This document shows, piece by piece, positions 45,001 through 46,151 of a stretch of DNA of 64,000 bases. The stretch's first letter is position 1. Each line of letters opens with the position of its first letter. A model generated the notes under the pieces. It was not told the origin of the DNA, did no database searches, and worked only from the letters and a program-made list of their open reading frames with translations. Both the position numbers and the translations under genes were made by a program. Where the stretch lies: positions 124,001 to 188,000 of the forward strand of contig NW_026936770.1 of the NCBI RefSeq assembly GCF_032062105.1, given 5' to 3'. The DNA comes from Saccostrea cucullata (taxonomy: Eukaryota).

Positions 45001-46151
45001 AGGAGTATATAAATTTGAATTTTTGACAGCATTATTATTCAGACTTGAAAATGATTTTACTCTGATATAAATTCACCTAGACATTATGTTTGTCAGAGTG
45101 GTAATGGTCTTTGTTGAATTCACACCTAGTTTGGATTTGCCCAGTTTTTACAAGGCAGAAAGGGACAGAGAAAATTTTCTCTGTATATAGTAACTATTCA
45201 AATAAAATGCATGAAATTTTCAGAGTGTGGATGAGATAGATGTCAATCTACTGTCACTGAATGGAGGACTAGCAGAGGACATGACCACTGATAAATCGAT
45301 CATCAAACTAATCCACCATCACAGGAAGGGGCAACCTGTCAGGTAAATCTATCATGTCAGGTAAATCCATCATGTCAGGTAAATCTATCATGTCAGGTAA
45401 ATCTATCATATCAGGTAAATCTATCATGTCAGGTAAATCCATTATGTAAATCTATCATGTCAGGTAAATCTATCATATCAGGTAAATCTATCATATCAGG
45501 TAAATCCATCATAGGTAAATCCATCATGTCTGGTAAATCTATCATTAAACTGATTTACAATCACAGGAAGGGACAACCTTTCAGGTAAATCTATCATCAA
45601 GCTAATCCACAATCACAGGAAGGGGCAACCTGTCAGATAAATCTATTATGTCAGGTAAATCTATCATATGAGGTAAATCTATCATGTCAGGTAAAAATAT
45701 CATGTAAATTTATCATAACAGGTAAATCTATCATCAAGCTAATCCACCATCAAGGGAATGGATAGATAATATAGGTATTGGAAACGTGTTCTGATTATCA
45801 CAATTTCAACTTATTTCGCAAAATAAAAAAATCATCAAAAGCTCAGTTTTGTTCATTTCCTTCATTTTTGTGTTCATTTTGATTAGTTACACAGTGTGTT
45901 TTGTAGATCAGTGAAATTGCAACTGGCATAAAGGTGTTTATAATTGTCTTTCCAAATTTATTTGTATGATTAAAGATTGACGTGTATTGATTGATCTTTA
46001 CAGACAAAGGGTAGAACCCAGAGGGACAGCCCCCTCATCTGTCTCAGACTTCTGCCTCCGGTCAACACCCAGCACTCAAATGGCTTCCAGTGTCAACTTT
46101 GAGAAAATTCAGGGAAGATTTGAAGCTTTGAAAAGGCAGAAAAAAGACTAG
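33030..46151 (+). CDS. Uncharacterised multi-ankyrin-repeat protein (1166 aa, 23 coding exons) with a C-terminal MIM1-like helix
   Basis: Exons: 33030-33855, 34684-34806, 35207-35385, 35680-35752, 37815-37942, 38370-38473, 38697-38856, 39331-39425, 39518-39581, 39869-39966, 40243-40363, 40547-40617, 40882-40987, 41142-41216, 41841-42063, 42254-42459, 42651-42793, 43550-43635, 44019-44079, 44407-44489, 44723-44931, 45224-45342, 46004-46151 (3501 nt, open frame). ANK motifs: GLTPLMIAAIEG, GRTALHYATQYNH, GMTALSMAAMKGN, PLFLAVENGHLDIVRLL, GNTPLMVACQVG, GLSPLHYACK. An in-frame stop at 33009 supports ATG 33030 as the start. Confidence 0.88.
35737..35856 (+). repeat. Short tandem copies of exon end plus donor (CTGGTCACTGAAACAG|GTA) x4
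   Basis: Copies at about 35737 (true), 35770, 35799 and 35834. Confidence 0.9.
36990..37183. mobile_element. Tigger/pogo-like MITE
   Basis: TACAGTGGAGCCTC..ATCTGGA / ATATCTGAAGGTCCACTGTA termini. Confidence 0.55.
37420..37880 (+). repeat. ~92-bp tandem array of acceptor plus 5' half of an ankyrin exon (4 decoys and the true copy)
   Basis: ATTC(C/T)AG|GAC...GTCAG(C/T)TACCTCT at about 37427, 37541, 37629, 37721 and the true copy at 37815. Confidence 0.92.
42977..43185. mobile_element. TACTGTA-type MITE (same family as 43766-43971)
   Basis: TACTGTAAACGTATTACATTTGGC / GCTAAATATAATACATTTACAGTA. Confidence 0.75.
43766..43971. mobile_element. TACTGTA-type MITE
   Basis: TACTGTAAAGGTATTACATTTAGC / GCTGAATAAAATACATTTACAGTA. 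Confidence 0.75.
45336..45755 (+). repeat. 18-bp donor-containing minisatellite (TGTCAG|GTAAATCTATCA) plus larger copies of the exon tail
   Basis: Starts exactly at the junction of exon 45224-45342; includes re-copies of AATCCACCATCACAGGAAGGGGCAACCTGTCAG. Confidence 0.92.

Follow-up and report, generated by a model that had tools for sequence, protein, structure and literature searches.

Does an ankyrin-repeat protein of the oyster Saccostrea cucullata end in a helix that docks on MIT domains, as the tail of IST1 does? The window analysed here is a stretch of 64,000 nucleotides of the forward strand (contig NW_026936770.1, positions 124,001-188,000, assembly GCF_032062105.1), within which positions 46080-46151 (+) translate to MASSVNFEKIQGRFEALKRQKKD followed by a stop. 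Judging from sequence, we read this tail as an IST1-type MIT-docking helix that a flexible tether joins to the end of an ankyrin scaffold, a reading to which we assign a probability of about 0.6.

The gene model built from the genomic sequence consists of 23 coding exons at 33030-46151 (+) with GT..AG borders at all 22 introns and a single stop. It encodes 1166 aa, where the preliminary description had estimated ~1170. All 1166 residues are identical to those of RefSeq XP_062584924.1, named 'ankyrin-2-like' in S. cucullata, a record possibly derived from the same genome and hence not independent of the model. Splicing was checked with contigs of a close relative, taken from four runs of four studies (4 of the 18 listed) and placed on 32500-46235; one of these runs is recorded as RNA and three are guessed to be so, and the contigs show many letter differences from the window. 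Among the contig joints listed, 13 of 15 are introns of the gene model and two lie within an intronic repeat. Exon 22 is joined directly to exon 23 in contig X1 record 5 (letters 508-624, then 625-793), which passes from 45339 straight to 46001, the last intron being removed, and contig X2 record 13 carries the last exon together with upstream exons. Because the relative's contigs splice exon 22 into exon 23, the last exon is real: the C-terminal tail first noticed at 46080-46151 is indeed the translated end of a 23-exon coding sequence, and the proviso that the last exon might prove to be a different one falls away. The features of the gene, in window positions, are as follows.

33030-46151 (+): whole coding sequence, 23 exons, 1166-aa ankyrin-repeat protein
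33030-33855 (+): exon 1, N-terminus predicted to be disordered (1-172) and a helical region specific to the family (gene model)
34684-34806 (+): exon 2 (gene model)
35207-35385 (+): exon 3 (gene model, relative's contigs)
35680-35752 (+): exon 4 (gene model)
37815-37942 (+): exon 5, ankyrin repeat (Pfam, gene model, relative's contigs)
38370-38473 (+): exon 6 (gene model, relative's contigs)
38697-38856 (+): exon 7 (gene model, relative's contigs)
39331-39425 (+): exon 8 (gene model, relative's contigs)
39518-39581 (+): exon 9 (gene model, relative's contigs)
39869-39966 (+): exon 10 (gene model, relative's contigs)
40243-40363 (+): exon 11, ankyrin repeat (Pfam, gene model, relative's contigs)
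40547-40617 (+): exon 12 (gene model, relative's contigs)
40882-40987 (+): exon 13 (gene model, relative's contigs)
41142-41216 (+): exon 14 (gene model, relative's contigs)
41841-42063 (+): exon 15, ankyrin repeats (Pfam, gene model, relative's contigs)
42254-42459 (+): exon 16 (gene model, relative's contigs)
42651-42793 (+): exon 17, ankyrin repeat (Pfam, gene model, relative's contigs)
43550-43635 (+): exon 18, internal disordered insert with conserved DSG-hydrophobic motif (gene model, relative's contigs, AlphaFold2)
44019-44079 (+): exon 19, internal disordered insert (gene model, AlphaFold2)
44407-44489 (+): exon 20 (gene model, relative's contigs)
44723-44931 (+): exon 21, last ankyrin block (Pfam, gene model, relative's contigs)
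45224-45342 (+): exon 22, end of last ankyrin block and start of linker (gene model, relative's contigs)
46004-46151 (+): exon 23, final coding exon, with the greater part of the S/P/T linker, the motif and the stop at 46149-46151 (gene model, relative's contigs)
45326-46091 (+): predicted disordered linker, residues 1113-1147, split by the intron 45343-46003 (pLDDT, composition)
46092-46133 (+): core of the IST1-like MIM helix, V1148-K1161, in register with human IST1 I350-K363

Tandem arrays overlap several splice sites of the gene. An 18-bp array of 23 copies at 45337-45734 begins at the last intron's donor and contains 12 donor-like CAGGTAAAT copies. Use of a later donor in this array would give a tail-less protein, because read-through of the first donor meets an immediate stop; the first donor is the one used in the relative's contigs. 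Two further arrays, of 29 bp x 3.9 at 35731-35854 and of 92 bp x 3.9 at 37524-37880, duplicate the exon 4 donor and the exon 5 acceptor, respectively.

The AlphaFold2 model of the oyster protein (17 sequences, mean pLDDT 70) predicts a disordered region (1-172), about 18 helix pairs, a disordered insert (924-1004) and a last ankyrin block, after which a linker at pLDDT below 50 (1116-1149) leads into a helix at pLDDT ~68 (1150-1165). The amphioxus orthologue, modelled with 38 sequences, has the same predicted layout and a tail helix at pLDDT ~82. The linker preceding the helix (1113-1147) is 40% Ser/Pro/Thr versus 17.5% across the whole protein, which agrees with the Ser/Pro/Thr-rich linker of the preliminary description. 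Pfam searches run on the orthologues P0003 and P0004 returned ankyrin-type models only at E<=0.05, with no ESCRT-III or Ist1 helical core; in the last exon of the window gene, Pfam has no match. Foldseek matches were generic ankyrin and DARPin structures only (TM <=0.31 by query), and the ESM Atlas placed the whole protein with generic ankyrin clusters and gave no match at >=0.9 for the C-terminal 63 aa of the amphioxus protein. By sequence the tail resembles the IST1 MIM; the ankyrin protein is not an ESCRT-III protein. The exon 18 insert contains a DSG-hydrophobic motif (residues ~938-946) that 22 of the 31 family members retain, chiefly molluscs and Owenia; it may be akin to a beta-TrCP phosphodegron or a caspase site.

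The oyster protein belongs to an uncharacterised orthologous family. Three queries, namely exon 1, residues 150-480 and a 17-sequence profile, recovered orthologues from bivalves, gastropods, Owenia, Lingula, Tubulanus, Macrostomum, Diadema, Acanthaster, Anneissia, Glandiceps, Ptychodera and Branchiostoma, and more distant homologues from three tardigrades and the sponge Ephydatia (29% identity over 198-1113). Their names in the source databases vary between species (ankyrin-1/2/3-like, PP6 subunit-like, tankyrase-like) and look like best-hit labels. Many ankyrin repeats are indeed common to the oyster protein, ankyrin-1/2/3 and the PP6 regulatory ankyrin subunits. True ankyrins, however, carry ZU5/UPA/death domains after the repeats, and by Pfam neither a ZU5 nor a death domain follows the repeats of the oyster family; the one protein examined under a PP6-subunit name shows ~25% identity versus 36-93% for most orthologues. 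No vertebrate, arthropod or cnidarian orthologue was found among the 20 named of the best 150 representatives, listed down to 342 bits, an absence that is weak evidence because long generic ankyrin proteins crowd the match list. A FastTree tree of 32 rows broadly tracks species relationships; six of its forks are weak, and long branches call for caution with Macrostomum and the tardigrades.

Eight animal phyla have members with the IST1-like tail; annelids, brachiopods, echinoderms, hemichordates and amphioxus are among the groups represented. In alignment A4, which comprises 31 proteins chosen for a visible tail and includes near-duplicates, the family core is a 14-residue predicted helix, [IV][DNS]F[DE]x[LIV]xxR[FY]ExLK, that follows a divergent Ser/Pro/Thr linker, aligns without gaps and is trailed by 1-21 residues. 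Core columns are numbered here by human IST1 349-364. The hydrophobic columns are I350 (I/V/F in 31/31), F352 (F in 23, L in 6 and I in 2 of 31), L355 (L/I/V in 31/31), F359 (F/Y in 31/31) and L362 (L/M/F/I in 30/31). The polar columns are D351 (D/N/S in 31/31), D353 (D/E in 28/31), R358 (R in 21/31, K in 2/31), E360 (E/Q in 26/31) and K363 (K/R in 27/31). A plain helix cap could account for some of the N-terminal conservation in the core. Mean pairwise identity among the 31 members is 0.39 for the core, 0.14 for the linker and 0.47 for the last ankyrin block, and the core ranks 411th of 1153 windows over the whole protein. The core Arg is replaced in 10 of the 31, namely in a clade of four clams, Biomphalaria, Tubulanus, Anneissia and Macrostomum, with Lys in two more. 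On the tree the four clams form one clade and the other Arg-less members are scattered, and by FastTree the Arg is found on both sides of the protostome/deuterostome split. The conservation check proposed beforehand is thus borne out, F-xx-[ILV]-xx-R-[FY]-xx-L-K being retained over eight phyla while the linker diverges, with the reservations that the Arg is absent in 10/31 and that some homologues have no motif.

Outside A4, the motif was seen in two of 13 family proteins (P0018 and P0215, the latter an isoform of an included row) and was absent from Babylonia, the three tardigrades, the sponge homologue, P0260, P0222 and four fragments or partial proteins, 11 in all. The sponge protein ends in a proline-rich linker and a charged segment in which Phe and Arg are correctly spaced but the two Leu anchors are missing. 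The tardigrade proteins P0286, P0295 and P0298, which have no IST1-like tail, have a different conserved C-terminal region in common, part of which is kept in Paramacrobiotus, Ramazzottius and Hypsibius alike.

The oyster's own IST1 ends VDFDDLTRRFEQLKKRK before its stop and matches human IST1 peptides from MIT complexes. The window core is identical to the oyster IST1 core at 7 of 14 positions, with a BLOSUM62 score of 35, versus a best of 24 among 72,918 14-mers from 57 other ankyrin proteins and a next best of 25 among 52,388 window 14-mers. Tails of deuterostomes and annelids score higher against IST1 than the oyster's, with values of 52 (starfish), 49 (amphioxus), 47 (urchin) and 42 (Owenia). 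A profile of the family tails built without IST1 ranked the IST1 exon first, at 15.6 bits versus 5.0 for the next match, among 302 other proteins (407,509 residues). As a harder control, 1,075 distinct 14-mers with the four hydrophobic anchors were drawn from 298 non-family proteins and scored against IST1 at only the nine non-anchor positions. At these positions 25 of the 31 tails exceed the 99th percentile of the pattern-matched 14-mers, and 4 of the 1,075 score at least as high as the window tail; the six tails no better than background are those of the four clams, Tubulanus and Macrostomum. Arg stands at the core Arg position in 4.8% of the background. By these comparisons the IST1 likeness exceeds that of a generic amphipathic helix, bearing in mind that IST1 was selected post hoc out of many known motifs, that ankyrin and VPS4 proteins make up most of the control set, which is not a proteome, and that the family rows are related to one another. 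A PDB sequence search with the oyster tail alone retrieved no IST1 peptide at E<=10; its only matches were to segments of SMC coiled coils, at weak scores (E 0.59 and 0.98). An origin of the tail by exon transfer from IST1 was also considered; the Ser/Gly-rich letters common to deuterostome tails and IST1 ahead of the motif are of low complexity.

A degenerate DNA pattern searched genome-wide gave 23 matches versus 14 for the reversed control, so that the count is not an enrichment. Two of the 23, IST1 and the ankyrin gene, are ends of known genes within five codons of the stop; three others also lie a few codons from a stop, in short frames that show no trace of a gene. Separately, 14 of the matches (among L013-L034) belong to one dispersed repeat family with the frame F-E-x-I-x-x-R-Y-E-x-[MI]-K, two copies of which contain an internal stop.

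The preliminary description had named the tail a MIM1 helix like that of IST1. The likeness to IST1 holds (7/14 identical, score 35), whereas the assignment to canonical MIM1 does not. The strict form [DE]xxLxxRLxxL[KR] occurs in none of the 31 tails, and even the broader (D/E)xxLxxR(L/F)xxL(K/R) fails in the oyster protein, where Ile replaces Leu and Phe occupies -3, as it also fails in the oyster IST1 tail. Looser forms are more frequent: LxxR-hydrophobic-xxL is present in 9/31 tails and [LI]xxR[FYIL]xxL in 12/31. The strict MIM1 and USP8-type ligand consensus patterns are both given in PMC12057046; the USP8-type consensus [DE][LIF]x{2,3}R[FYIL]xxL[LV] occurs in 0/31 tails, and the truncated RFxxL form of the USP8 ligand motif named there is present in the oyster ankyrin protein. 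The core hydrophobic-xx-R-hydrophobic-xx-L-K is common to the family and the canonical MIM1 of CHMP1/2/3, but in the family tail, as in IST1, aromatics replace the acidic -3 residue and the central Leu. The IST1 helix binds calpain-7 as type 3 (PMC10586806). For the family tail, IST1-type type-1/3 MIM is a better name than canonical MIM1.

The closest counterpart, the C-terminal MIM of IST1 (human 349-364; PDB 4u7e/4u7i/4u7y, 4wzx, 7s7j, 8uc6), is likewise C-terminal after a low-complexity linker and has the same register and anchors, I/V, F, L/I, R, F, L and K. Oyster V1148, F1150, I1153, F1157 and L1160 fall in register on IST1 I350, F352, L355, F359 and L362, and R1156 and K1161 on R358 and K363; Lys and Gly stand in place of IST1 D354 and R357. 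Unlike the MIM of IST1, the family tail sits on an ankyrin solenoid instead of an ESCRT-III core, has lost its Arg in several lineages and has residues trailing its core. A conserved MIM2 upstream of the helix was considered and rejected: the MIM2-like element [LIV]Px[VLI]P is found in only 3/31 linkers and, in a further difference from IST1, not in the oyster ankyrin protein.

MIMs are known outside ESCRT-III, among them those of ANCHR/ZFYVE19, AQP2 and USP8 ligands such as the Girdin peptide. Studies of HCMV, Bro1 and HD-PTP reportedly bear on the subject as well. In ANCHR/ZFYVE19, AQP2 and Girdin, as perhaps in the oyster family, an unrelated scaffold carries the MIM and binds or sequesters a MIT protein; among the examples compared here there is no ankyrin protein and none of the IST1-type aromatic pattern, which the oyster family keeps over eight phyla. 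Among titles and the beginnings of abstracts in a mostly non-subscription literature, we found no ankyrin protein with a MIM. While the MIM itself is a known type of motif, an ankyrin scaffold that carries one of apparent IST1 type would be new.

The match to the IST1 tail and its retention from worms to sea urchins and lancelets suggest that the ankyrin protein likely recruits the same MIT-domain enzymes. The 344-366 element of IST1 binds 10 of 11 IST1-binding MIT domains, and IST1 has been called the ESCRT system's most promiscuous hub for MIT binding (PMC9477494). IST1 I350, F352 and F359 make extra MIT contacts that add affinity for ULK3 (PMC4475061); these IST1-distinguishing columns are among the best kept in the family. 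The kept aromatics may point to the tight IST1 binders, ULK3, spastin, spartin and calpain-7, at least as much as to VPS4. In the mechanism we propose, the four hydrophobic anchors and V1148 would lie in the MIT groove as those of IST1 do, the groove chosen being that of helices 2/3 in VPS4, LIP5 or ULK3 and that of helices 1/3 in spastin, spartin or calpain-7, and R1156 and K1161 would form the usual salt bridges with the MIT domain. With its ankyrin solenoid the protein would bind a cargo or site and there tether a MIT enzyme, or compete with IST1 for that enzyme, presumably without itself polymerising. For LIP5 binding by AQP2, Arg and Lys outweighed single hydrophobic residues, according to PMC6862464; Arg-less lineages may consequently have lost type-1 binding, or the helix may serve otherwise in them.

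Several other roles for the helix were weighed. It might be an intramolecular element that closes the groove of the protein's own ankyrin repeats, like the autoinhibitory segments of ankyrin-R/B. As such a role would have it, nothing in the tail varies less than its hydrophobic face, which is retained even in Arg-less members, and tail pLDDT values of ~82 in amphioxus and ~68 in oyster could reflect packing, although isolated conserved helices can reach similar values. The fold search does list ankyrin-B repeats bound to autoinhibition segments, at low TM-scores that express generic ankyrin likeness. The models, read for pLDDT and secondary structure, are silent on packing of the helix against the repeats, the IST1 match at non-anchor positions would be left unexplained, and self-binding could in any case coexist with MIT binding; we consider this explanation rather unlikely. 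Docking on some other, non-MIT partner, or self-association, is also unlikely, the IST1 likeness then being a convergence of charged amphipathic helices. The SMC coiled coils that are the oyster tail's only PDB matches, and the retention of the helix in Arg-less lineages, would fit this idea, but 14 residues are short for a stable coiled coil and the position-specific match to IST1 exceeds that of the pattern-matched controls.

The tail might also act as a class-3 (all-helical) nuclear export signal for CRM1. F1150-I1153-F1157-L1160 fit the spacing i, i+3, i+7, i+10, the four-anchor pattern is present in 30/31 tails, and PMC5358978 places class-3 signals, including that of mDia2, at the extreme C-terminus and gives an X11L2 signal similar to the Tubulanus tail. 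The same pattern is nevertheless present six times in the oyster ankyrin protein, and an export signal requires none of the conserved polar residues (D/E in 28, R in 21, E/Q in 26 and K/R in 27 of 31). The same source (PMC5358978), moreover, documents class-3 matches without CRM1 binding, and Tyr, which occupies the third anchor in 10/31 tails, lies outside the stated consensus; we hold this function to be improbable. Chance likeness without function, or a wrong last exon, could be argued from a motif that is short and was picked post hoc, and from a Magallana-cluster isoform (P0080, 1033 aa) that stops short of the tail. It is very improbable, and largely refuted by the spliced contigs of the relative and by conservation in alignment A4, where the motif is kept over eight phyla versus a divergent linker.

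Beyond docking by an IST1-type helix, a broader proposition can be put forward tentatively, at somewhat less than even odds: that this ancient animal family is a dedicated IST1 mimic, a ~130-kDa ankyrin scaffold with a copy of IST1's MIT-binding tail, which takes microtubule-severing, kinase, protease or VPS4 activities beyond ESCRT-III filaments or titrates them from IST1. It would have existed in the bilaterian ancestor, perhaps earlier, its motif being lost or retuned by lineage; the partial tail of the sponge homologue is a hint of such a pre-bilaterian age. If true, a second, unrelated protein with IST1's tail would open a new way into the MIT-enzyme network of invertebrates and lancelets, and the misnamed 'ankyrin-like' family would gain its first functional handle. 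The natural variants of the core Arg (kept, replaced by Lys, or lost in a clam clade) offer a series for the residues that decide between type-1 and type-3 binding.

Candidate MIT partners are encoded in the oyster genome, namely VPS4, a MITD1-like protein and further MIT exons, and IST1 is also present. A PF06911 match suggests spartin. An assignment of the MIT exons L004/L007 to ULK3 was not borne out: their sequences match VPS4 MITs or nothing. The MITD1-like loci L003, L005 and L009, on contigs C10859 and C21707, represent two loci, paralogues or haplotigs. The Ist1 Pfam model matches only one contig, other than that of the ankyrin gene; in the IST1 gene (L010/L011, G000:C15207:176654-180304) the Ist1 domain takes up just two long coding stretches, and the last exon is proline-rich, with a MIM2-like stretch ahead of the MIM helix.

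Other genes were seen in the window. Coiled-coil exons at ~3140-4900 on the minus strand, with no Pfam match, are presumably those of a syntaxin-17-like protein. A KRIT1/CCM1-like gene (~18400-26250, minus strand), with NUDIX_5, ankyrin, FERM_M and KRIT1 FERM C-lobe models in Pfam, is divergently oriented to the ankyrin gene and contains a tandem array of ~270-bp units (19271-21153, minus strand) with repeated identical open frames. Finally, a metalloprotease-disintegrin gene of the ADAM family, which we take to be ADAM10/17-like, lies at ~7500-14900 on the plus strand and matches the Reprolysin and Disintegrin models.
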